From an uncultured SAR86 cluster bacterium (GTDB lineage Bacteria > Pseudomonadota > Gammaproteobacteria > Magnimaribacterales > D2472): a DNA stretch of 64,000 nt. The notes beneath the pieces are model-generated. The model was not told the DNA's origin, did no database searches, and saw only the letters and a program-made list of their open reading frames with translations. Positions 5,973 through 48,761 of this stretch are shown piece by piece (position 1 is the stretch's first letter; each line of letters opens with the position of its first letter). Location: NCBI GenBank assembly GCA_902593675.1, contig CACJJI010000004.1, forward strand, positions 77,529-141,528, given 5' to 3'. A program made the translations under genes and the position numbers.

Positions 5973-6794
5973 ATGCTTTATATAATTTGCACTCCTATTG
6001 GTAATTTAAATGATTTCTCATTGAGGTCAATCAATACTTTAAAGGAAGTAGACACAATTTTTGCAGAAGATACTAGGGTTGCTTTAAAACTCTTACAAAA
6101 TTTTGATATTCAAAAGAAAACTAAACCATTTCATGAGCATAATGAAGCTAAAGCTAGCGATGAAATAATTAAACTAATTAAAAGTGGAGAAACAATAGCG
6201 CTTATATCTGATGCAGGGGCGCCACTTATATCTGATCCTGGATACCCATTAATTCAAAGATGCATCAAGGAGGATATTTGTTTCACCGTCCTTCCAGGGC
6301 CATCGGCAGTGATCAATGCTGTTATTCTCTCAGGTTTGCCATCAGATAAATTCATATTTAATGGATTTTTACCTAAACAATCTGAGGCAAAAAGAAAAAT
6401 TGCTATAAAGATACAAAACTCTAATATAACAAATATTTATTTTGAATCTGCAAAGCGGATTAGTAAAACTATTTCAATTTTTTCTGAGGTCCTCAGGCCA
6501 AATACTCAGGTAGCAATATGCCGTGAGATGACCAAGGAATTCGAGTCCGTTTATAGAGGAACAATCGAAGAGGTTTTAGCTCTTGTTAAAAATAATGAAA
6601 TTAAATTGTTGGGAGAGTTCGTAATTCTTGTCTATCCTGACTCTTATCTCAGCACATCCCTTAATTTAGATGAAAATTTTTGCCGTCCTTTTCTTAATTT
6701 TTTATCTCCAACAGATGCATCAAAGCTTATAGCTAAAATTACCTCATTTTCCAAGCAAGAAGTATATAAATTCTTGTTAGGGATTTCTAAATAA
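5973..6794 (+). CDS. rsmI: 16S rRNA C1402 2'-O-methyltransferase
   Basis: LYIICTPIGNL, AEDTR, ALISDAGAPLISDPG, REMTKEFE. Confidence 0.96.
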   Translation: MLYIICTPIGNLNDFSLRSINTLKEVDTIFAEDTRVALKLLQNFDIQKKTKPFHEHNEAKASDEIIKLIKSGETIALISDAGAPLISDPGYPLIQRCIKEDICFTVLPGPSAVINAVILSGLPSDKFIFNGFLPKQSEAKRKIAIKIQNSNITNIYFESAKRISKTISIFSEVLRPNTQVAICREMTKEFESVYRGTIEEVLALVKNNEIKLLGEFVILVYPDSYLSTSLNLDENFCRPFLNFLSPTDASKLIAKITSFSKQEVYKFLLGISK

Positions 6795-6819
6795 AAGCAA
6801 ATGGTATTAAAATGCAATC

Positions 6820-7149
6820 GAGTTGATCGGATGGCTGCTAACAATTTGTTAGAGGAAAGTCCGGACTTCATAGAGTAGAGTGCCAGGTAATTCCTGGGGA
6901 GTGTGAGCTCACGGCAAGTGCAACAGAAATTATACCGCCAAGAAATTGGTAAGGGTGAAATGGTAGGGTAAGAGCCTACCGCGTATTTGGTAACAAATAC
7001 GGCAGTGTAAACCCCACTTTGAAGCAAAACCAAATAGGAATCCTGTTAGGCTACTCGTCTAGGATTCGGGTAGGTTGCTTGAGCAATATGGCGACATATT
7101 GCCTAGATAGATGGCCATTTAATACAGAATCCGGCTTATAGATCAACTC
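6820..7149 (+). ncRNA. rnpB: RNase P RNA (bacterial type A)
   Basis: P1 GAGTTGATC/GATCAACTC; conserved GAGGAAAGTCCGG, AGTGCAACAGAAA, GGGTGAAA, GAAGCAA and ACAGAATCCGGCTTA; lies between rsmI and mraZ. Confidence 0.96.
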
Positions 7150-7167
7150 AAGTCATTTTTTTAAAAA

Positions 7168-31321: not shown

Positions 31322-31610
31322 ACTTTTAAATTTAATTCTTCTCTTATTAATTTTTATTGCTATATATAATATTTTTTTTGGTATTGACAGCAAAAGAAAC
31401 TTCTCTGCTCTGCAGCATGAAAATCAAGAACTTCTTATGCAAAATAAAATTATTGGTGAAGAGAATAATCAATTAGAGCTTGAGATCCAGAGCAAACAAA
31501 AGAATGATGCTCATGCAGAAAAATTTGCTAGAGAAGAATTAAATTTAATCTTTGAAAATGAAGACTTTCTCAGATTTAAGGAGACTAATTCTAATGAGCC
31601 TCAAGGATAA
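31308..31610 (+). CDS. ftsB: Cell division protein FtsB (septum formation initiator)
   Basis: TM helix, coiled coil, EKFAREELNLI..NE.F; between eno and ispD; ATG at 31308. Confidence 0.85.
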   Translation: MSLVKLLNLILLLLIFIAIYNIFFGIDSKRNFSALQHENQELLMQNKIIGEENNQLELEIQSKQKNDAHAEKFAREELNLIFENEDFLRFKETNSNEPQG

Positions 31611-32745
31611 CATTGCAGTTATCATTCCTGCTGCAGGAAGTGGCAGTCGTTTTGGTGGCTCAACCCCTAAGCAATTTTTAAATATAGGAGATGAGACTGT
31701 CTTAGAGAGGTCTGTTAATTTATTTTTAGAAATCTCTAGCATCAAAGAAGTAATTGTTGCTATTAACGCAGATGAAGATTTAATTAAATCACAATCTTTT
31801 TATGAGAACCCAAGAGCTAAAGTTGTTTCAGGAGGTTCTTCAAGAAGTGAATCAGTATTTAATGGCTTAGCAGCAGTTGATGAAACTGTAGAGATTGTAG
31901 CAGTTCATGATGCTGTGAGACCTTGGGTTAAAAAGAATCATTTTGAAGATTTATTGACCCAACTCGGCAATGATGAATCTGCTCAAGGAGTGTTTCCAGT
32001 AATTCCAGTAACAGATTCGCTGCGAGTGAAAAAAGGTGATAAGACAATTCCAGTTGATAGAGAAAAATTTTTGCATGTTCAAACTCCTCAAATTTTTTAC
32101 CGTCAGTCTCTTCAGATAGCACTTGATAAGCTTAAAAAAGAAAATCTCCATTTGAGTGATGAGTCTCAAGCAATGGAGCATGCAGGATTTAAAGTTTTAG
32201 CAGCGCCTGGAGAAAGATCAAATATCAAAATAACTTACTTCGAAGATTTAGCTAGCTTTAGAAAAGACCTCAGGATTGGAAGAGGCATTGACTTTCATAG
32301 ATTTCAGCCAGGAGATGGCTTAACTCTGGGTAATGTCTTTATAGACTGCAAGCTCTCCATTGTGGCGCATTCAGATGGAGATATTGTTCTGCATGCCATA
32401 TCTGATGCTTTACTTGGTGCAGCGGGATTGAGAGATATTGGTTATTATTTTCCTGATACTGATGAAGAAAATAAAAATCTTAGTAGCGTAAAAATCATTG
32501 AAAAGGCATTAGGTTTATTAAAAGAGAAAGGTCTGCAGCCAAAAAATATTGATTTTGTGATTGTGTGTGAGCAACCAAGAATTGGACCTTATGCAGATCA
32601 AATAAAAAAATCTCTTGGAGAAATTTTGAGTATTGAACAAAGTTTTATTGGTGTTAAAGCTACTACTTCAGAGAAAATGGGAGTTATTGGTGATGGTAAT
32701 GGCATTGCTGTATATGCAATTGCATCTTTAGAAATTTTTTCATGA
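31594..32745 (+). CDS. ispDF: Bifunctional IspD/IspF fusion
   Basis: IspD motifs PAAGSGSR..PKQF, HDAVRP, QTPQ, NIKIT followed in frame by IspF motifs RIGRGIDFHR, HSDGD, DIGYYFPD, KATTSEK; AAGGAG RBS before ATG 31594. Confidence 0.93.
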   Translation: MSLKDNIAVIIPAAGSGSRFGGSTPKQFLNIGDETVLERSVNLFLEISSIKEVIVAINADEDLIKSQSFYENPRAKVVSGGSSRSESVFNGLAAVDETVEIVAVHDAVRPWVKKNHFEDLLTQLGNDESAQGVFPVIPVTDSLRVKKGDKTIPVDREKFLHVQTPQIFYRQSLQIALDKLKKENLHLSDESQAMEHAGFKVLAAPGERSNIKITYFEDLASFRKDLRIGRGIDFHRFQPGDGLTLGNVFIDCKLSIVAHSDGDIVLHAISDALLGAAGLRDIGYYFPDTDEENKNLSSVKIIEKALGLLKEKGLQPKNIDFVIVCEQPRIGPYADQIKKSLGEILSIEQSFIGVKATTSEKMGVIGDGNGIAVYAIASLEIFS

Positions 32746-35868: not shown

Positions 35869-35972
35869 TGTTTGTGGTGAAAAGTTAGATTAAAAAAGAT
35901 TTTAACAATGAGTAATGAACAAGTCAGCATGAATTTGATAATATTTGATTTACTTTTACCAAATTTGTAATA

Positions 35973-35992
35973 TACTGTACAAATATACAGTA
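35973..35992. promoter_or_regulatory. LexA (SOS) box upstream of recA
   Basis: TACTGTACAAATATACAGTA matches CTGT-N8-ACAG (35975-35990), just upstream of the recA RBS AAGGAG. Confidence 0.9.
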
Positions 35993-36004
35993 AAGGAGTT
36001 CATT

Positions 36005-37012
36005 ATGTCAGACAAAGATAAAAACCTAAGTGAAGCTTTATCACAAATAGAAAAACAATTTGGTAAAGGCACCGTTATGAAAATGGGAGACAGGGAGATT
36101 GTAGATATCCCATCTGTTTCAACTGGTTCTCTTGGTCTGGATATTGCTCTGGGAATTGGAGGTCTTCCAAAGGGAAGGGTGGTTGAAATTTTTGGGCCTG
36201 AATCATCTGGAAAAACAACATTAACACTTCAAGCCATAGCTGAATGCCAAAAAGCTGGTGGTACAGCAGCATTTATAGATGCTGAGCATGCGTTGGATCC
36301 AAATTATGCTGAAAAATTAGGCGTTAATGTAGATGAGCTTTTGCTATCTCAGCCAGATACTGGAGAGCAGGCACTAGAAGTAACTGATATGCTTGTTAAA
36401 TCAGGTAGCGTAGATTTGATTGTTGTAGATTCTGTTGCAGCTCTAACACCTCGTGCTGAAATTGAGGGTGACATGGGCGATCATCATGTTGGATTGCAGG
36501 CACGATTGATGTCGCAAGCGCTCAGAAAAATCACGGGTAATATACAAAGATCTAATGCTATGGTTATTTTTATTAACCAAATTAGGATGAAGATTGGAGT
36601 AATGTTTGGTAATCCAGAAACCACTACTGGTGGCAATGCGCTTAAATTTTATTCTTCAGTTCGTTTAGATATAAGACGAATAGGAGCTGTTAAAGAAGGT
36701 GAGGAAGTTGTGGGAAATGAGACAAGAGTGAAAGTTGTAAAAAACAAAGTTTCTCCTCCATTTAAGCAAGCTGAATTTCAGATCATGTATGGCGAGGGAA
36801 TTAATACCGAGGGAGAAATTTTAGAGCTTGGTCAAAAGCTTGAGTTAGTTGAAAAATCTGGATCATGGTATAGCCATAATGGAGAAAAGATTGGTCAAGG
36901 AAAGGTCAATGCAAGTAAATTTCTAAGAGAAAACACTAAAATCAGAGACAGCTTAGTTAAAGAGATTAGAAAGGCATATATACCTTCTGCTAAGAAAGCT
37001 GCTAAGAAATAA
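36005..37012 (+). CDS. recA: Recombinase RecA
   Basis: [42 protein letters not shown]; AAGGAG RBS before ATG 36005. Confidence 0.99.
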
Positions 37013-39897: not shown

Positions 39898-41664
39898 ATG
39901 CGTTCACATTTTTGCGGAGACATTAATAGTTCAGACATTGGTAGCAATATTGAGATTTCTGGATGGGTTCATAAACGAAGAGATCACGGAGGTGTAATTT
40001 TTTTAGATATTCGTGATTTGCATGGAATAGTCCAAGTTGTCTTTAATCCTGATTTGAAAGAAGTTTTTGATACCGCAGATTCTTGCAGAAGTGAGTATGT
40101 TGTTCATATCGAAGGATTAGTAACAAAGAGGATTGAAGGTGCCATAAATCCAAAAATGGCTACTGGAGAGATAGAAATTGAAGCAACCAATTTAAAGATT
40201 TTTAGTTCAGCTATTACTCCTCAATTTCCCCTTGATGACTATCAAGATGTTAATGAAGATGTAAGGCTCAAACATAGATTTTTAGATTTAAGACGTCCTG
40301 AAGTTAATCAAAGGTTGGTCAAAAGATCGCAGATCACTTCAAAGATAAGATCTGTTTTAGAAAAAAATAATTTTCATGAAATTGAGACTCCAATATTGAC
40401 AAAAGCTACACCTGAAGGAGCAAGAGATTATCTAGTTCCAAGTAGAGTGCATCCTGGTGAGTTTTTTGCATTGCCTCAATCTCCTCAGCTATTTAAACAG
40501 TTGCTAATGATTGGCGGGATGGATAAATACTATCAGATCGCTAAATGCTTTAGAGATGAAGATTTGCGAGCTGATAGACAGCCTGAATTTACTCAGGTTG
40601 ATATTGAAGCTTCATTTGTTTCTACTGAAGAAATCATGGACCTTGGAGAGGACTTGGTTACCTCATTGCTTTCTGAATTTACTGACTATCAAAAAACAGA
40701 AGTACCAAGAATTACATACAAAGAATCTATTGAAAAGTACGGATGTGACAAGCCAGATTTAAGAATTCCACTTGAACTTAATGACATTTCTGAGCTTGTG
40801 AAAGATGAAGAATTTAAAGTATTTTCCGGCCCTGCAAATGATCCTGCTTCTCGTGTTGTAGCTTTAAAGGTTCCAGACGCTGCATCTTTGACAAGAAAAA
40901 AAATTGATGAGTACACTGATTTTGTTGGCAAACTAGGCGCTAAAGGTCTCGCGTATATAAAAGTTGTAGATCTTGATCAAGAAAATGGACTTCAGTCACC
41001 AATTCTTAAATTTTTTCAACAGGAAACTATTGATTCAATTCTTTCTTCTATCAATGCGCAAAACAATGACATAATTTTTTTCGGAGCTGGAAAGGCTGGA
41101 ATTGTTAATCTCTCAATGAGCTCACTGATAAAAAAACTTGGTGAAGACTTAAGTTTGATTAATTCTTCATGGGCGCCGTGCTGGATAGTAGATTTTCCTA
41201 TGTTTGAAAGAAATAAAGAAAATAATCTTACATCTTTACATCATCCATTTACCTTACCAGCCGTAACAATTGATGAGTTAAAAAATGATCCAGATAATGC
41301 ATTAGCATGCGCATATGACTTTGTTCTAAATGGATATGAACTTGGTGGTGGATCTTTAAGAGTCTATGAACCCTCAATGCAAAAAGAGATATTTTCTATG
41401 CTCGGAATTTCTTCTAATGAAGCGAAGGAAAAATTTGGATTCCTTTTGTCAGCATTATCATCTGGATGTCCACCTCATGGAGGCATTGCATTTGGTTTAG
41501 ATAGAATTGTGATGTTGCTATCTAACACTACTAACATCCGTGATGTTATTGCCTTTCCAAAAACGCAAAGCGCATCTTGTTTGCTTACAGATGCTCCCGG
41601 CATAGTTTCTGATGATCAACTTGACGAGTTGAACATCAAATCAACCTTTGAACCGGAGCAATAG
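39898..41664 (+). CDS. aspS: Aspartate--tRNA ligase (probably non-discriminating Asp/Asn)
   Basis: [49 protein letters not shown]. Confidence 0.98.
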
Positions 41665-42402
41665 ATGGCTGGACATTCCAAATGGGCAAATATCAAGCAT
41701 CGAAAAGCAAGGCAGGATGCTTCCAGGGGAAAAATCTGGACTAAGGTTATAAGGGAAATTACAGTTGCTGCAAAAGGCGGCCCTGATCCAAATGACAATC
41801 CAAGACTCAGATTGGCTTTGGACAAAGCGAATGCTGCAAATATGCCTAAAGATACAATTAAACGTGCAGTTCAAAAGGGCTCTGGAACAGGCGAAATGGG
41901 CGCAATAGAAGAGCTTACTTTTGAAGGCTATGGCCCTAATGGTGTTGCTATTCTTGTGGAGACAATGACGGATAATAGAAACAGAACTGTTGCTGATGTC
42001 CGTCATGCTTTTTCAAAATTTGGAGGAAATATGGGTACAGATGGTTCTGTTGCCTATCTCTTTAATAAGCTTGGAGTTGTGCATGTGGATCTATCTCATG
42101 ATGAAGATCAAATTATGGAGATTGCATTAGATGCTGGAGCAGACGATTTTATTGTGACGGAAGACTATTTCGAAATTATTTCCGCCTCAACAAATTTATC
42201 TGCTATTACTGAGGCTTTTAAGAAAAAAAATATTGAAACATTGTTAGCTGAAAATACTATGAGAGCAGAAACATTGGTTAGTCTAGATCAAGAAGCATCT
42301 GAGAAAGTTCTGAAAATCATGAACTTTATGGATGACCTTGATGATGTGCAAGAAGTTCACACGAATGCTGAATTTCCCGAGGACTTTACTGAAGAGGATT
42401 AA
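41665..42402 (+). CDS. yebC: YebC/PmpR family protein
   Basis: MAGHSKWANIKHRK, EGYGPNG, TDNRNRT, DDLDDVQEV. Confidence 0.96.
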   Translation: MAGHSKWANIKHRKARQDASRGKIWTKVIREITVAAKGGPDPNDNPRLRLALDKANAANMPKDTIKRAVQKGSGTGEMGAIEELTFEGYGPNGVAILVETMTDNRNRTVADVRHAFSKFGGNMGTDGSVAYLFNKLGVVHVDLSHDEDQIMEIALDAGADDFIVTEDYFEIISASTNLSAITEAFKKKNIETLLAENTMRAETLVSLDQEASEKVLKIMNFMDDLDDVQEVHTNAEFPEDFTEED

Positions 42403-42404
42403 TT

Positions 42405-42827
42405 GTGGCAATTAACTCAAGAACTAAAGGCGCTAATTTTGAAAGAGAAATTGGCAATCTTCTTGTTGAGCAGTTAGGGTTAAATCAACCAGTTAAAAGA
42501 ATTCTTGAGCAAACACGAACAAAAGAATTGCCTGATTTAAAATTAGGCAGGTGGTGCTTGGAATGCAAAAGATACGGTGATGGTTCTGAACCATCTCAAG
42601 ATTGGTGGGATCAAGTTTTAGCAGCTACAGGAGAGGGAGAATTTCCAGCTTTAATCTATAAGTTTAATCGTCGACCAATCAAAGTGAGGATACTTGCTGG
42701 AACTTTAATTCCAGAGCTGGATTTTTCGCCCATGACGATTGATTTGATGTGGGAAGATTTTGTAGAAATTCTTAGGTACCTCTTTCAAGTGGATATTGAG
42801 CAACATGAATCCTCATTTCAGGTCTAA
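42405..42827 (+). CDS. Putative Hjc/phage D14-like PD-(D/E)XK Holliday junction resolvase
   Basis: NSRTKGANFERE, LPDL, LECK, WWDQ, PALIYK; GTG start with GAGGA RBS; occupies the ruvCAB position. Confidence 0.75.
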   Translation: MAINSRTKGANFEREIGNLLVEQLGLNQPVKRILEQTRTKELPDLKLGRWCLECKRYGDGSEPSQDWWDQVLAATGEGEFPALIYKFNRRPIKVRILAGTLIPELDFSPMTIDLMWEDFVEILRYLFQVDIEQHESSFQV

Positions 42828-43221
42828 AGATTTTTACCTCAGAGTTTATGTGGAAGATACAGATTTTCAAGGTGTTGTTTATCATGCAAATTATCTCAAA
42901 TACTTTGAAAGAGCTCGATCTCAGTTTTTAATTGAGAATAACTTATCTCAAACAGACGCAATTGCAAAAAGGAATGAGTCTTACGTTATAAAATCAATTA
43001 ATCTTTCCTATTATCATCCCGCAAAATTAGAAGATGAGTTGACAGTAAAAACGGAAATAGAGTTGGTTAGCAAAGCAAGAACTATATTTTTTCAATCTAT
43101 TTTGAATTCAAAAAATGATACACTCATTTGCAAGGGCGAGGTGGAAGTTTGTTTTATTGACAATAGCTCAGGAAAACCAAAATCTTTTCCTTTAGGTTTA
43201 TTAAATTTATTCAAGAATTAA
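42805..43221 (+). CDS. ybgC: Tol-pal-associated acyl-CoA thioesterase
   Basis: RVYVEDTDFQGVVYHANYLKYFERAR. Confidence 0.92.
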   Translation: MNPHFRSKDFYLRVYVEDTDFQGVVYHANYLKYFERARSQFLIENNLSQTDAIAKRNESYVIKSINLSYYHPAKLEDELTVKTEIELVSKARTIFFQSILNSKNDTLICKGEVEVCFIDNSSGKPKSFPLGLLNLFKN

Positions 43222-43222
43222 T

Positions 43223-43903
43223 ATGGATGACTTTTCGGTTATAGATTTATTTCTCCAGGCAAGCCTTATTGTTCAATTGGTAATGATTTTATTGTTAATA
43301 GTTTCAATCATTTCATGGATTGTTATTTTTGAAAGATATTTTAATTTAAATAGAATCAAGCGGGCTAACCAAGAATTTGAAAAAGAATTTTGGTCTGGCA
43401 AGGATTTGAGCAAGCTTTATGAGGGTATCGATGGAGTTTCTAATGATGAATTGGTTGGATCTTTGCGAGTTTTTAAGCATGGATTTGGAGAATTTTTAAG
43501 GCTTAGTGAGGGTCAGCAAATTACAATCGAAGACTTGGAAAGCGTTAATAGGGCTATAAGAGTATCTCTGGCAAGAGAAGAAGAGTCATTAATGAATCAT
43601 CTACCTTTTTTAGCTAACGTAGGCTCGGTAAGCCCATATGTTGGATTGTTTGGAACAGTTTGGGGAATTATTAATTCATTTCAAGGTCTTTCTGATGCCA
43701 CTCAAGCAACTATTAATGCTGTTGCCCCTGGAATCTCAGAGGCTCTAGTTGCAACAGCTCTAGGTCTTTTTGCTGCAATACCAGCCGTAGTTGCATACAA
43801 TAGGTTTGCATCAGATTCTGATACTCAATTACAGCAATCCTCTGTATTTGGTGAAGAGTTGGCCAGTATTCTATATAGACAAACGGTTAAAGCAAAGCTT
43901 TGA
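43223..43903 (+). CDS. tolQ: TolQ
   Basis: EFEKEFWSG, SPYVGLFGTVWGI, VAPGISEALVATA. Confidence 0.96.
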   Translation: MDDFSVIDLFLQASLIVQLVMILLLIVSIISWIVIFERYFNLNRIKRANQEFEKEFWSGKDLSKLYEGIDGVSNDELVGSLRVFKHGFGEFLRLSEGQQITIEDLESVNRAIRVSLAREEESLMNHLPFLANVGSVSPYVGLFGTVWGIINSFQGLSDATQATINAVAPGISEALVATALGLFAAIPAVVAYNRFASDSDTQLQQSSVFGEELASILYRQTVKAKL

Positions 43904-44322
43904 TATACAGAATTGGTAAAAGGAAAAAGTTAAACGCAGACATTAATGTGGTCCCATACATTGATGTGATGTTAGTTCTTCTAATTATTTTTATGGTACT
44001 TTCCCCTCTGCTGATTCAAGGCATTGAGGTAAATCTTCCTAAAACCGATACCACTAAAATGTCAGTCTCAAGTGAGCCGCTTGTCATTTCAATTGATAGC
44101 CAAGGAGAGTATTTTATTAATTTGGGTGAGGAGCAATTGCCTATATCTCTAATGGAGTTAAAAAATAAAGCTAAGATTATTTATCAAGCAAATCCAGACA
44201 TTGAAATTGTTTTTAAAAGTGATGCCAGAGTTCCTTTTGATTACGTCGCTAAAGGCATGGCAAGCATCCAAAGCTTGGGAATTCAAAAGATAGGAATTAT
44301 TACTTCAGGCTATGATAGCTAA
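43900..44322 (+). CDS. tolR: TolR
   Basis: INVVPYIDVMLVLLIIFMV, VNLPK. Confidence 0.94.
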   Translation: MIYRIGKRKKLNADINVVPYIDVMLVLLIIFMVLSPLLIQGIEVNLPKTDTTKMSVSSEPLVISIDSQGEYFINLGEEQLPISLMELKNKAKIIYQANPDIEIVFKSDARVPFDYVAKGMASIQSLGIQKIGIITSGYDS

Positions 44323-44947
44323 TTATAGATATTTGCAAGCATCGCTATATTCTTTTTGCATTCACGCTTTTCTATTTTTGTATATCTATGGAACTTTTAA
44401 CTCAGATACATCGCAAACACTGTTAATCTCAAAGCCTCTTCAAATAGAGCTGAAGTTTGATCTGCCATCTAAAGATATAAAAAAACAAATCCCAACTGCC
44501 ACCAAGGCAATAGAAACTCCAATGGAGCAATCTCCTCAAGATACAGTTTATTCCAAAGATGCTAATGTAATTCAAACTCCACAAAGCAATACCTTGATTG
44601 AATCTAGGATAGCTAATCTTTTATCAGAAGAAAGTGAAATTGCAATGGATAGAGAGAAGCAAGAAATCTCAATGTATGCTCAAAAAATTATTTCCATCAT
44701 TGAGAGTGCCTGGATGAAACCTAGAAATATTCCCAAGGATCTAGTTGCAAATTTGAGGCTGAAAATTCGTTCTTCTGGGAGAATTATAGACGTAGAGCTT
44801 ATTAAAAGTAGTGGCAATATTCGATTCGATAATTCTGCTCTTCAAGCTGTAAGGAGAGTGGAGACTTTTAGTTTTTTTAATTCGATTCCGAAAAATTTGT
44901 ATGAAAGAGAATTTCAAACCATTGCAATAAGCTTTAATCCATCATGA
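44312..44947 (+). CDS. tolA: Short TolA
   Basis: TM helix with S..H motif (SFCIH); C-terminal TonB-like domain SSGNIRFDNSALQAV; between tolR and tolB. Confidence 0.8.
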   Translation: MIANYRYLQASLYSFCIHAFLFLYIYGTFNSDTSQTLLISKPLQIELKFDLPSKDIKKQIPTATKAIETPMEQSPQDTVYSKDANVIQTPQSNTLIESRIANLLSEESEIAMDREKQEISMYAQKIISIIESAWMKPRNIPKDLVANLRLKIRSSGRIIDVELIKSSGNIRFDNSALQAVRRVETFSFFNSIPKNLYEREFQTIAISFNPS

Positions 44948-46230
44948 AAAAAAATTTAGTTTTCGTTTTATTATTACTTGTCCCAACTTTTACTCATGGA
45001 GAGCTTTTCTTAGAAATTACAAAGGGCTCCGAAGATCCTTACAAAGTAGCAATGATTCCTTTTGAAGGCAATACAAGAGTTTCAAAGCAGCTGAATAGTA
45101 TTATGCGAAATGACTTAATTCGTACAGGAGAATTTTTAATTCTTGATGAAGAATTATTATTACCCTTAAAAATTATTGATGATGAGTTAATTTTTAGTGA
45201 CTGGAAATTGCTTGGAATGGATTATTTGGTTACCGGAACAATTGTAAATTCAAAAAATTCTTTAGACATAAATTATGAAATTTATGACATTCATAAAAAG
45301 AGAAAAGTGCGTAGTTCAAAAGTTTTCGGTATCCCAAATCAAATTAGGCAACTTGCTCATTACACGAGTGATGGTATATATGAGTCAATAACAGGAATCA
45401 AAGGTATTGCCGCTACAAGGCTTTTGTATGTCAATGAAATTAAAGACTCTCAACTAATCTCTACATACAAACTTATGTTGGCTGATTCGGATGGAGCTAA
45501 TGAAAAAATTCTTTTATCAAGTCCCGAGCCTATTATCTCTCCCTCATGGTCGCCAGATGGAAAAAAGGTCGCATATGTTTCTTTTGAAACGGGAATGGCA
45601 AAAGTTTTTATACAAGAAATAGCTTCTGGTAAAAGAGAGGCAGTATTATCAAAAGACACTCAGATTAGCTCTCCCTCATGGTCACCTGATGGAAAGTATC
45701 TTTCTCTAACACTATACCAAGATGGAAATGCAGAAATTTATATTTTAAGGTTGCGTGATCAAACTCTTACGAGGATGACCAATCAATTTGCTATCGACAC
45801 AGAATCTTCATGGTCTCCCAAGGGAAACAAAATTTTGTTTACAAGTGGTCGCTCTGGTTCACCGCAAATTTATGAGTTAGACCTAAGAAAGCTCAACCCA
45901 AAAGCAAAACGTATTTCGTTTGAGGGAACATATAATGCGAAAGCCTCTTATCTTCCAAAAGAAGAAGGGATTATTTTTGTTCACCGATCTAGCGATGGCT
46001 TATTTCACATAGCTCTTAAGTATAAAAAAGAAAATTTTATAAGGGTTTTAACTGAAGCAAAGATGGATGAATCGCCTAGTGTTGCTCCTAACGGTAATAT
46101 GGTAATCTATGGAATTAAAGAAGAAGATCTAAGCATGCTTGCTGGATTTAGTCTAAGTGGTGCAAAGTTTAAATTACCTGCATCAAATGGAGAGGTTAGA
46201 GAGCCTGCTTGGTCAAATTTTCTAAGATAA
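44944..46230 (+). CDS. tolB: TolB beta-propeller
   Basis: SPSWSPDG repeats, FTSGRSGSPQIY, VREPAWS. Confidence 0.96.
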   Translation: MKKNLVFVLLLLVPTFTHGELFLEITKGSEDPYKVAMIPFEGNTRVSKQLNSIMRNDLIRTGEFLILDEELLLPLKIIDDELIFSDWKLLGMDYLVTGTIVNSKNSLDINYEIYDIHKKRKVRSSKVFGIPNQIRQLAHYTSDGIYESITGIKGIAATRLLYVNEIKDSQLISTYKLMLADSDGANEKILLSSPEPIISPSWSPDGKKVAYVSFETGMAKVFIQEIASGKREAVLSKDTQISSPSWSPDGKYLSLTLYQDGNAEIYILRLRDQTLTRMTNQFAIDTESSWSPKGNKILFTSGRSGSPQIYELDLRKLNPKAKRISFEGTYNAKASYLPKEEGIIFVHRSSDGLFHIALKYKKENFIRVLTEAKMDESPSVAPNGNMVIYGIKEEDLSMLAGFSLSGAKFKLPASNGEVREPAWSNFLR

Positions 46231-46252
46231 TACATACATTGGAACAATTATT

Positions 46253-46726
46253 ATGAGCAAATCAATTAATTCATTTTTTACCTTATTAACTTTAATAATT
46301 TTTTCTGCTTGTAGCTCTGTTCAAGTTACAGAGGAAGCAATTGCAGATCAAAATGTTGCCGGGGTTTCAATCACATCAAAATCTACTGCTACTCAGGCGG
46401 TCCTAGCAAATGCGGTAGTTTATTTTGAATATGATCAATTTAATCTTACAGCTAAATCAATTCAGGCTCTTAAAGGCGTAAGTGAGCTCATGAATAGAAA
46501 TTCAAAAATCACAATTTCAATCGAAGGCCATGCTGATGAAAGAGGAACCAGAGAATACAATTTAGCTCTGGGACAAAGACGAGCTGAGTCAGTTGCTAAT
46601 TATTTAATTTCCAATGGAATTAATAGAAATAGATTGCTTACCAAAAGTTATGGAGAAGAAAGGCCTTTATCTCTTGGCTCGAATGATGTTGCATGGTCAA
46701 AAAATAGAAGAGTTGAAATTAAGTAG
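46253..46726 (+). CDS. pal: Peptidoglycan-associated lipoprotein
   Basis: Lipobox FSAC, EGHADERGTREYNLALGQRRA, NRRVE. Confidence 0.96.
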   Translation: MSKSINSFFTLLTLIIFSACSSVQVTEEAIADQNVAGVSITSKSTATQAVLANAVVYFEYDQFNLTAKSIQALKGVSELMNRNSKITISIEGHADERGTREYNLALGQRRAESVANYLISNGINRNRLLTKSYGEERPLSLGSNDVAWSKNRRVEIK

Positions 46727-47402: not shown

Positions 47403-47478
47403 GGGTCGCTAGCTCAGCTGGTAGAGCAGTTCGCTTTTAACGAATTGGTCACAGGTTCGAATCCTGTGCGACCCACCA
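47403..47478 (+). tRNA. tRNA-Lys(TTT)
   Basis: Acceptor stem GGGTCGC/GCGACCC, anticodon arm GTTCG-CTTTTAA-CGAAT, T-loop TTCGAAT, encoded CCA; 76 nt. Confidence 0.97.
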
Positions 47479-47498: not shown

Positions 47499-48761
47499 AT
47501 GACTGAATTGACTAGCTTCCTTAAAAATTCTTTGAAGAGACTATCATTGTCATTTACTAAAGAATCTGGACTTGCTGGTTTTTTCTTTTTTTTAGTTTTG
47601 TGCTCTTGGTATATCTTGAGGCCCGTTAGAAATGAAATGGCTGTTCAGAACTCAGATATTCTGCCATACCTTCTAGCTGTGGGCGCTTTTGTAATGTTGC
47701 TTTTGAATCCAATTTATTCATGGCTTGCTTCACGAAGAAATTTAAGGGGAGTATTGGTAGGGTGTTACTCATTCTTTATTCTTAATTTATTGATATTCAT
47801 CATTTTATGGGAATTTTTTAATCTTTCCTCGACAATTTGGTTAAGCCAAATTTTTTATATTTGGTGCAATGTATATTCTTTTTTTGTAGTTTCTATTTTT
47901 TGGGTAGTAATTATCAACCTATTTCGTGGAGATGGTGCTACAAATGTTTTTGGCGTGATTGCTGCAGGTGGCTCATTAGGAGCATTCCTTGGCTCAGAGA
48001 TTTCCAAGCAATTAGCATCAACATTTAATGAATCAGGTATTATTTTTTTTACATTGATATCAATTATCTTTTTAATACTTGCATTGTTAACAGGCCTTAT
48101 TTTACTAAAAAGATTTGTTTCTGCAGAAGACATAGATAAGGCTGCAGGTGGTACCAGTTTTGACGCTCTAAAAAACCTTATTTCTTCATCTCAAATTAGG
48201 TCTATAGGATTGTATATGTATCTTTGGACTGCAATGATGACCATCCATTGGGTAACTTCAATTGATATAGTAAATGCTTGGTCTTCCGATGGTGGAAACA
48301 GAATAATTTTCTTTAGCAATATTGAACAAACAGTCACAATCCTTACATTATTTACACAATTTTTCTTAACTTCGGCAATCATAAGATTTACTGGGCCCAA
48401 AACTATTTTGATGCTCTATGGTATTTTATTCATGGGAGCATTTATTGGTTACTACCTTAACCCGTCAATTGGATATGTATTTTTTATTACCATTATTTTA
48501 AGACTATTTGAGTATGGTATTAATAAGCCAACCAGAGAGGTCGTTTTCAGTTATTTAAAAAGAACAGATAGATACAAATCCACGGTTATGGTTGATACAT
48601 TCTTGGTGAGGATGGGAGATTTTTCAGGAAGTGGATTTATTCTTCTATCAAAATCATTTGGATTGGTGTTTTCGCAAGTCCCATTGTTGGCAATCCCATT
48701 TGCTGGATGTTTAGCGGCTCTTGGATACAAGATTCCACCTAAAGAAGAAATCAGTTCTTAG
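47499..48761 (+). CDS. MFS-fold transporter, NTT/ATP:ADP antiporter (TLC)-like family
   Basis: About 12 TM helices; YILRPVRNEM, FVVSIFW, NKPTRE, RYKS..DT..RMGD. Confidence 0.72.
   Translation: MTELTSFLKNSLKRLSLSFTKESGLAGFFFFLVLCSWYILRPVRNEMAVQNSDILPYLLAVGAFVMLLLNPIYSWLASRRNLRGVLVGCYSFFILNLLIFIILWEFFNLSSTIWLSQIFYIWCNVYSFFVVSIFWVVIINLFRGDGATNVFGVIAAGGSLGAFLGSEISKQLASTFNESGIIFFTLISIIFLILALLTGLILLKRFVSAEDIDKAAGGTSFDALKNLISSSQIRSIGLYMYLWTAMMTIHWVTSIDIVNAWSSDGGNRIIFFSNIEQTVTILTLFTQFFLTSAIIRFTGPKTILMLYGILFMGAFIGYYLNPSIGYVFFITIILRLFEYGINKPTREVVFSYLKRTDRYKSTVMVDTFLVRMGDFSGSGFILLSKSFGLVFSQVPLLAIPFAGCLAALGYKIPPKEEISS

Follow-up and report, generated by a model that had tools for sequence, protein, structure and literature searches.

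To our knowledge, nearly all Gram-negative bacteria carry the RuvABC system. The textbook case in which its nuclease RuvC was displaced by a non-orthologous enzyme is RecU of Firmicutes and Mollicutes, and RusA of lambdoid prophages, carried by lambdoid phages just before the Q antiterminator, is a phage-derived stand-alone resolvase able to replace RuvABC function in Escherichia coli. Lineages with RecU are reported to retain RuvAB, with recU located far from ruvAB (PMC3403352). Among the archaeal Hjc enzymes, that of M. thermautotrophicum is described as rescuing E. coli ruvC mutants (PMC10956419), and the archaeal-type resolvase Hjc_15-6, encoded by Thermus phage Tth15-6, is described as cutting X-shaped DNA and forming a dimer or a dimer of dimers (PMC8805305). 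Sporadic occurrence of Hjc in bacteria has also been noted (PMC3424549). Here we examine a 64,000-nt stretch of DNA, hereafter the window, from an uncultured bacterium of the SAR86 cluster (order Magnimaribacterales; contig CACJJI010000004.1, positions 77,529-141,528 of the forward strand; source genome of 1.5 Mb in 20 contigs, 81% complete), in which a 140-aa open reading frame (ORF) lies between yebC and the ybgC-tol-pal genes. All positions given for this ORF and its neighbors count from the start of the window. We consider it probable that ruvCAB was displaced from its own slot in the SAR86 ancestor by this ORF, which would encode an Hjc-type resolvase of phage origin.

The location of the gene provides the first line of evidence. 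In closed genomes of outgroup bacteria, ruvC directly follows yebC at all 14 loci compared, tol-pal genes lie ~1.8 kb further on in 10 of them, aspS is syntenic as in SAR86 in several, and at one locus the order yebC-ruvC-ruvA-ruvB-ybgC was confirmed with Pfam models. YebC, YbgC, TolB and TolQ are likewise reported as the top neighbors of RuvABC (PMC3403352), so an earlier note on this DNA, made from the sequence alone, was correct in naming ruvC-ruvA-ruvB as the content of this slot in many Gammaproteobacteria. Given this outgroup order, the ORF occupies the exact position of ruvCAB. Within SAR86 the arrangement is far more stable than coincidence would allow. The order proS, zinc-ribbon gene, aspS, yebC and ORF was found in 13/13 loci from four families, followed by ybgC-tolQ in 10, by tolQ directly in two and by a masked stretch in one, and the order from proS to the ORF was kept in 29/29 further loci. 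The survey of yebC-ybgC synteny proposed in the earlier note thus places the ORF after yebC throughout. Measured at 42 loci, the distance from the yebC stop to the ORF start varies between -11 and +5 nt around a median of 2 nt, and a purine-rich stretch precedes the start in many of them. At two loci of f4, the SAR86 family with the smallest genomes (L034 and L039), ybgC does not stand between the ORF and tolQ, which overlap by ~4 nt. One metagenome protein of 368 aa (P0496), present on a single contig and 60% identical to the ORF product, joins the YebC domains with the nuclease domain and is probably a read-through gene call of the tightly coupled pair.

The gene is distributed across the entire order. 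A search with the single protein identified homologs of 47-100% identity in 56 of 61 related genomes, including 28/28 of high quality, and a profile built from an alignment of 11 sequences (A2) extended this to 238/266 genomes of the order, 55/57 of high quality and 22/22 genera. All five ORF-less genomes that were examined proved to be assembly gaps or contig ends at yebC; three of the five also have no yebC, indicating that this region was not assembled. The other two are of high quality, and their contig stops within yebC or 38 nt past it. The patchy, strain-level presence that the earlier note regarded as damaging to its proposal was therefore not observed. Two copies, one with full SAR86 synteny (L069) and one partial and 79% identical to the ORF (L075), are filed in metagenome-assembled genomes (MAGs) titled as a Thaumarchaeota archaeon and a euryarchaeote, probably as binning errors.

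The second line of evidence is the gene set that surrounds recombination in these organisms. RuvC was found in 0/61 relatives and 0/266 genomes of the order (57 of high quality, 22 genera). No match above cut-off was obtained among the 61 relatives for RuvA_N (a single match of 19.8 bits) or for RuvB (TIGR00635; best match ~29 bits against 299), and the weak RuvB matches fall in frames of 421, ~650 and 811 aa that we take to be other AAA+ proteins. Closed single-contig genomes were included in these searches, which agree with the expectation of the earlier note that no intact ruvABC would be present elsewhere. By comparison, an even draw of 301 Gammaproteobacteria contained 296 with RuvC, among them tiny endosymbionts and genomes of 0.3-0.4 Mb. 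Loss of the gene is rare, and SAR86 accounts for three of the five exceptions. This sample includes four unpublished genomes with RuvC (G097, G174, G318 and G328), the exclusion of which gives 292/297. RuvC was likewise not found in two non-SAR86 genomes of the sample, G170 (180 contigs, 99% complete) and G283 (310 contigs, 93% complete).

Other functions linked to recombination are partly retained. RecA was present in 5/5 SAR86 genomes and RecR in 49/50 of high quality, while RusA (PF05866), named in the earlier note as a gene to search for, RecU and RadA/Sms were each found in 0/5, the last with respect to its cut-off. RecQ was found in 0/58 SAR86 genomes by a search that was positive in 2/3 outgroups. 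RecG, also named in the earlier note, was recovered at full length from most genomes (51/61). Full-length RecG was not found in four high-quality genomes, each from a different genus of the family to which the window belongs (G032, which is closed, G034, G035 and G036). None of these four yielded RuvAB or RecQ, RadA was not found in G032, the sole one of them checked for it, and all four retain the ORF family.

The protein itself provides the third line of evidence. The ORF product matches PF24608 (PDDEXK_15, 'phage putative PDDEXK endonuclease') over residues 4-96 with 30.2 bits against a gathering cut-off of 27 (E 5.2e-7), as do all 85 sequences of a diverse alignment of its relatives (A1). 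It also matches phrog_244 (E 4e-11), labeled 'RusA-like Holliday junction resolvase'. There is no family for the ORF in NCBIfam, and a search of the protein Atlas returned only its own family. The motifs pointed out in the earlier note, KGANFERE, LPDL, LECK, WWDQ and PALIYK, are all present in the translation. In A1, G9, E13, D44 and K55 are invariant and R6, K8, R32, L34, Q36, E53, W67, W68, Q70 and P81 are each conserved in more than 90% of sequences; E13, D44, E53 and K55, which form the E...(P)D...(D/E)xK pattern of PD-(D/E)XK nucleases, are unchanged in 41/41 SAR86 and 79/79 viral sequences. When the A1 profile was compared with the sequences of the PDB, archaeal Hjc and Hje ranked first. 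The best match was 1gef (E 0.0079), the following entries include 2wcz, 4tkd, 2wcw, 1ob8, 1hh1, 4tkk and 2eo0, and Hjc, Hje or ST1444-type chains make up 7 of the 13 PDB sequences matched. The alignment with 1gef pairs E13, R14, R32, D44, E53 and K55 of the ORF with E9, R10, R25, D33, E46 and K48 of Pyrococcus furiosus Hjc, residues that are reported to be essential in that enzyme (PMC10956419). The Pfam Hjc model is touched by 7/85 family members (E up to 1, best 2.4e-4) and is the second commonest family after PF24608. The assignment to the E..PD..ExK nucleases made in the earlier note is thus supported at the sequence level by the PF24608 match, the invariant acidic and lysine residues and the archaeal Hjc enzymes as best solved relatives. 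In our reading, the predicted protein would work like an Hjc and belong to a separate, related family.

Several other identities were considered for the ORF and rejected. Although the PHROG label suggests RusA, the ORF has no match to PF05866, and the label is a functional name and not a statement of fold kinship. The ORF matches neither the RuvC (PF02075) nor the RecU (PF03838) model. The resemblance to T5 D14-like nucleases suggested in the earlier note was not found, as a tblastn search of 50,697 phage records yielded seven (Roseobacter phages, Phage C72C1 and EBPR podovirus 1), none of which is T5.

The gene shows the signature of a constrained and long-resident locus. Its median dN/dS is 0.023 in 24 within-genus comparisons with the window copy, and the same comparison gave 0.034 for yebC, 0.059 for tolQ and 0.107 for ybgC. 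The GC content of the ORF (0.383 overall, 0.291 at third codon positions, GC3) equals that of its neighbors (yebC 0.394, GC3 0.285), as would be expected of a gene that is old and fully settled. RNA libraries from three studies yielded contigs that cover parts of the ORF (X10, 42404-42685; X3, 42400-42473 and 42630-42786; X7, 42748-42963, which spans from the ORF into ybgC) and differ from it mostly at third codon positions; such contigs cannot give level, strand or ends.

Beyond SAR86, members of the family come overwhelmingly from viruses. Relatives are encoded on at least 469 viral contigs, and host neighbors are absent from all 80 that were kept for analysis. Names given to relatives by their sources include 'Holliday junction resolvase' and 'resolvase [uncultured Mediterranean phage uvMED]'. 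Three of six phage loci scanned carry the gene beside recombination genes, one with a Sak4-like annealase, SSB and primase and two with a RecE-like exonuclease and primase/helicase; the remaining copies lie with primase and methylase genes, near a terminase, or among virion and lysis genes (L081). The cultured Roseobacter phage CRP-701 has its copy next to a PD-(D/E)XK nuclease-like gene, SSB and primase/helicase. Searches of 72,556 plasmid records gave no match to the ORF. Cellular copies outside SAR86 are rare. PF24608 was found in 5/300 sampled Gammaproteobacteria, three of them SAR86; matches in G218 and G242 of this class sample, both of which possess RuvC, consist of a weak, non-syntenic 111-aa ORF in one and a GC-rich, prophage-like copy in the other. 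Among 401 sampled Pseudomonadota the A1 profile was positive in nine, of which the eight non-SAR86 genomes measure 3.1-4.9 Mb. Their seven full-length copies have a GC content of 51-65% and no yebC or tol neighbors, and are partly prophage-like, with RecT-like genes, a primase and, in one case, a position immediately before a Q-like antiterminator.

A phylogeny with phage homologs, as proposed in the earlier note, separates SAR86 together with eight viral contigs (L079-L086) from all other viral sequences with support of 100/99 and recovers the SAR86 families as groups. In the best tree the eight viral sequences nest inside SAR86, and SAR86 monophyly remains acceptable under the approximately unbiased test (p 0.33 for the careful tree, 0.83 for the quick tree). 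These viral contigs have a GC content of 34-40% and reach 43 kb; their copy is 49-51% identical to the ORF, with the match at about 6001-6400, and in L081 it is flanked by a virion protein gene on one side and by tail or ejection genes on the other. They may represent recapture of the host gene by phages or the lineage of the donor. Because the tree is unrooted, the direction of transfer was read from the distribution. We interpret these data as one ancient transfer from phage to SAR86 and vertical descent thereafter, with either a later host-to-phage recapture or a sister lineage of the donor. The same phage contigs also encode a 593-aa protein with CHASE2 and adenylate/guanylate cyclase domains (L081:1426-3207), 28% identical to a chromosomal 738-aa CHASE2-cyclase of the source genome of the window (G000 contig C2:112350-114272; L188:14291-16507) that adjoins a 2049-aa cadherin-repeat protein. 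A prophage in this contig, suggested by its match to L081-L083, was rejected, as the match is the CHASE2-nucleotide cyclase gene beside the giant cadherin-repeat protein.

These observations support conclusions of differing strength. We are highly confident that a phage-derived PD-(D/E)XK core gene has become a fixed occupant of the ruv slot in an order without detectable RuvABC. That its product is the Holliday-junction resolvase of the order seems to us somewhat better than an even proposition, and for this product we infer the fold, the dimer, the metal dependence, the junction specificity and the role in vivo. In the mechanism that we propose, the ancestor of Magnimaribacterales would have acquired the nuclease gene from a phage, and the gene now occupies the ruv slot as a single-copy core gene. 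By analogy with Hjc and RecU, the product would be a small, Mg2+-dependent PD-(D/E)XK homodimer that binds the four-way junctions made by RecA. Its two active sites, each composed of E13, D44, E53 and K55, would nick two opposite strands, and ligase would seal both nicked duplexes, so that the enzyme would do the job of RuvC. With RuvAB no longer there to drive it, branch migration would be taken over by RecG in genomes that have it, or would proceed with no dedicated motor. The in situ displacement by a stand-alone resolvase that the earlier note proposed is supported by the ruv slot, the RuvABC genes that were not found and the order-wide gene, but a single nuclease can replace the RuvC cut and not the branch migration by RuvAB. 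A bolder version, which we offer tentatively and hold to be somewhat short of an even chance, is that SAR86 completes RecA recombination with one phage-derived Hjc-type resolvase, that at least the four genera without RecG do so where neither RuvAB nor RecQ was found (nor RadA, checked in the closed genome), and that phages have since retaken the host gene.

A number of observations weigh against the assignment of the ORF as the SAR86 resolvase. Its kinship with Hjc is difficult to recover by other routes: the ORF has no match to the Pfam Hjc model (PF01870) at E up to 1, the A2 profile retrieved no Hjc from the PDB and only chance matches near E 1, hhalign gave a probability of 6.9% (P 0.005) against a marine archaeal Hjc alignment, for the D..ExK part only and with a low-diversity set containing a long insertion, and single sequences gave 3-5%. 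The archaeal Hjc set was drawn from two archaeal MAGs and their relatives; the Hjc model itself scored above cut-off in 0/5 SAR86 genomes. The likeness to Hjc asserted in the earlier note is visible in the A1 profile and the paired essential residues, is not seen with the Pfam model or the A2 profile, and is weak in the hhalign comparisons. RuvX/YqgF, at times called a resolvase, is present in 5/5 SAR86 genomes. In the phage group of L081, the copy lies among virion and lysis genes and not recombination genes. One SAR86 genome that is 59% complete (G422, C1:637202-637588) has a TAG inside the family match, which could reflect either loss of the gene's function or an error in sequencing, and the RNA-library contigs are only a hint of transcription, as DNA carry-over is possible. 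Our literature search found no experiment on any member of PF24608, the Pfam name of which includes the word 'putative'. Finally, phage junction enzymes are described as typically promiscuous nucleases of branched DNA (PMC3864405), and use in the host could therefore differ.

This last point leads to the strongest alternative, in which the ORF encodes a domesticated phage structure-specific nuclease with its main job at, for example, stalled or reversed forks, flaps or D-loops, and junction resolution has been lost or is performed by another, unrecognised enzyme. We regard this as unlikely. The promiscuity of the phage enzymes and the weak Hjc link at the sequence level would both accommodate it, as would RecG, which can process forks as well as junctions and is kept in 51/61 genomes. 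However, the gene took the exact position of ruvC, no other resolvase family was found in searches for RuvC, RusA and RecU, the four high-quality genomes without RecG still keep the gene, and the residues essential in Hjc are all conserved. Still less probable, in our estimate, is a protein with a nuclease fold that acts outside recombination, in RNA metabolism or translation with YebC, in the envelope or division with Tol-Pal, or in restriction or defense, and whose slot is coincidental. One source does name a relative 'Restriction endonuclease', automatic Atlas names include 'Mrr domain', Mrr_cat is touched weakly by 3/85 family members, and the coupling to yebC is tight, including the single fused gene call. 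Nevertheless, PADLOC returned no match for the ORF or two phage homologs and the flanking ORFs include no methylase partner; a gene that is single-copy, core and vertically inherited across the order is unlike defense genes; phage copies occur in recombination and replication modules; and an unrelated gene would be unlikely to reach one particular slot of a ~1.5 Mb genome by chance. A phage remnant that is decaying or selfish and serves no host function, suggested by the overwhelmingly viral distribution outside SAR86, is scarcely credible and already contradicted by the conservation data (dN/dS of 0.023, invariant catalytic residues), the fixed position in 22/22 genera, a composition equal to that of the neighbors and flanks free of phage genes.

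The genes adjoining the putative resolvase are listed in Table 1. The local description in the earlier note was confirmed by direct reading of the coordinates, including a 2-nt spacer (42403-42404) between the yebC stop codon (TAA, 42400-42402) and the ORF and a GAGGA motif ahead of it. The reported 23-nt overlap with ybgC holds for its ATG start at 42805, and a TTG start at 42796 would give 32 nt. The gene order from aspS through pal also stands, with yebC and ybgC identified by Pfam and the other names by translation or position. No integrase or phage genes were present among the flanking ORFs scanned, and no terminator-like site was found on the + strand before 47060.

Table 1. The candidate resolvase gene and associated features, in window positions
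Feature	Position	Strand	Remarks
PD-(D/E)XK, Hjc-like nuclease gene, 140 aa, candidate Holliday-junction resolvase	42405..42827	+	GTG start; PF24608
GAGGA Shine-Dalgarno-like motif	42394..42398	+	within yebC 3' end, 6 nt ahead of GTG; presumed role
yebC (TACO1/YebC family)	41665..42402	+	PF01709 and PF20772 matches
ybgC-type thioesterase	42805..43221	+	4HBT_2 and 4HBT matches
tolQ-tolR-tolA-tolB-pal	43223..46726	+	names from translations read and conserved outgroup position
aspS	39898..41664	+	upstream of yebC; name from translation read
recA	35945..37012	+	PF00154, E 4e-146; 5.4 kb upstream of the ORF

Elsewhere, the window contains an ordinary class A RNase P RNA (6819-7154) and an ordinary tRNA-Lys(UUU) directly past the tol-pal cluster (47403-47478). 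An ispD-ispF fusion at 31552-32742 combines IspD and YgbB domains within a single 397-aa ORF, and a 420-aa ORF at 47499-48758 has a hydrophobic-looking translation and no Pfam match at E 1e-8.

SAR86 is among the most abundant bacterial groups of the surface ocean. Across this order, RuvABC, RecQ and RadA were not found in the genomes searched for each, RecA is kept, and a phage-derived nuclease under strong purifying selection occupies the slot of the missing system. Ramfelt et al. (PMC11582366) report that 27 of the 28 missing markers are absent from 732 SAR86 genomes, and the loss of RuvABC is probably implicit in their supplement; the main text of that paper contains none of the words ruv, resolvase and Holliday. 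Our literature search found no paper on the SAR86 replacement gene, its position in the ruv slot or the link to PF24608. The kinds of event involved are already known, namely displacement of RuvC by RecU, phage Hjc-type resolvases and sporadic bacterial Hjc. If our interpretation is correct, the locus represents a clean natural example in which one viral gene has displaced a non-orthologous three-gene machine from its own slot, and Hjc-type resolution works as the sole system of a free-living bacterium. This would raise the question of how SAR86 moves and cuts its junctions in the absence of RuvAB, and how some genera do so with no RecG either; should the reading with a single resolvase and no motor be true, no other free-living bacterium would be known to process junctions with so few components. 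These results probably also account for some of the 'missing recombination and repair markers' that lower estimates of SAR86 completeness (PMC11582366), and provide the large phage family PF24608 with a host-side functional anchor.

The SAR86 gene can be compared with several described systems. Archaeal Hjc and Hje (PF01870; 1gef, 1hh1, 2wcz, 1ob8) resemble the ORF product in size and in an N-terminal KGxxxER followed by D and ExK, and the six residues described as essential in the P. furiosus enzyme align with it one to one (PMC10956419). Unlike them, the ORF belongs to a separate family, bacterial and phage in distribution, with its own conserved R6, K8, G9, R32, Q36, WWxQ and P81. The E10-D40-E53xK55 set reported for Hjc_15-6 (7bnx; PMC8805305) has almost the spacing of E13-D44-E53xK55 in the ORF, but Hjc_15-6 was not retrieved by the A1 profile among PDB sequences at E up to 10 and is a phage gene, whereas the ORF is a host core gene. 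RecU is likewise a PD-(D/E)XK resolvase, acting in the place of RuvC across an entire bacterial lineage; in contrast to RecU lineages, SAR86 has no detectable RuvAB and carries the newcomer inside the ruv slot. RusA shares a likeness in position, as one PF24608 prophage copy lies just before a Q-like antiterminator, but it differs in family and fold and is a cryptic accessory gene rather than a core gene. Relative to RuvC-RuvA-RuvB, in which an RNase H-like nuclease works with a branch-migration motor, the SAR86 locus, with no RuvAB found, has one 140-aa PD-(D/E)XK protein that holds the same position between yebC and ybgC-tol-pal and presumably serves the same end step of RecA recombination.

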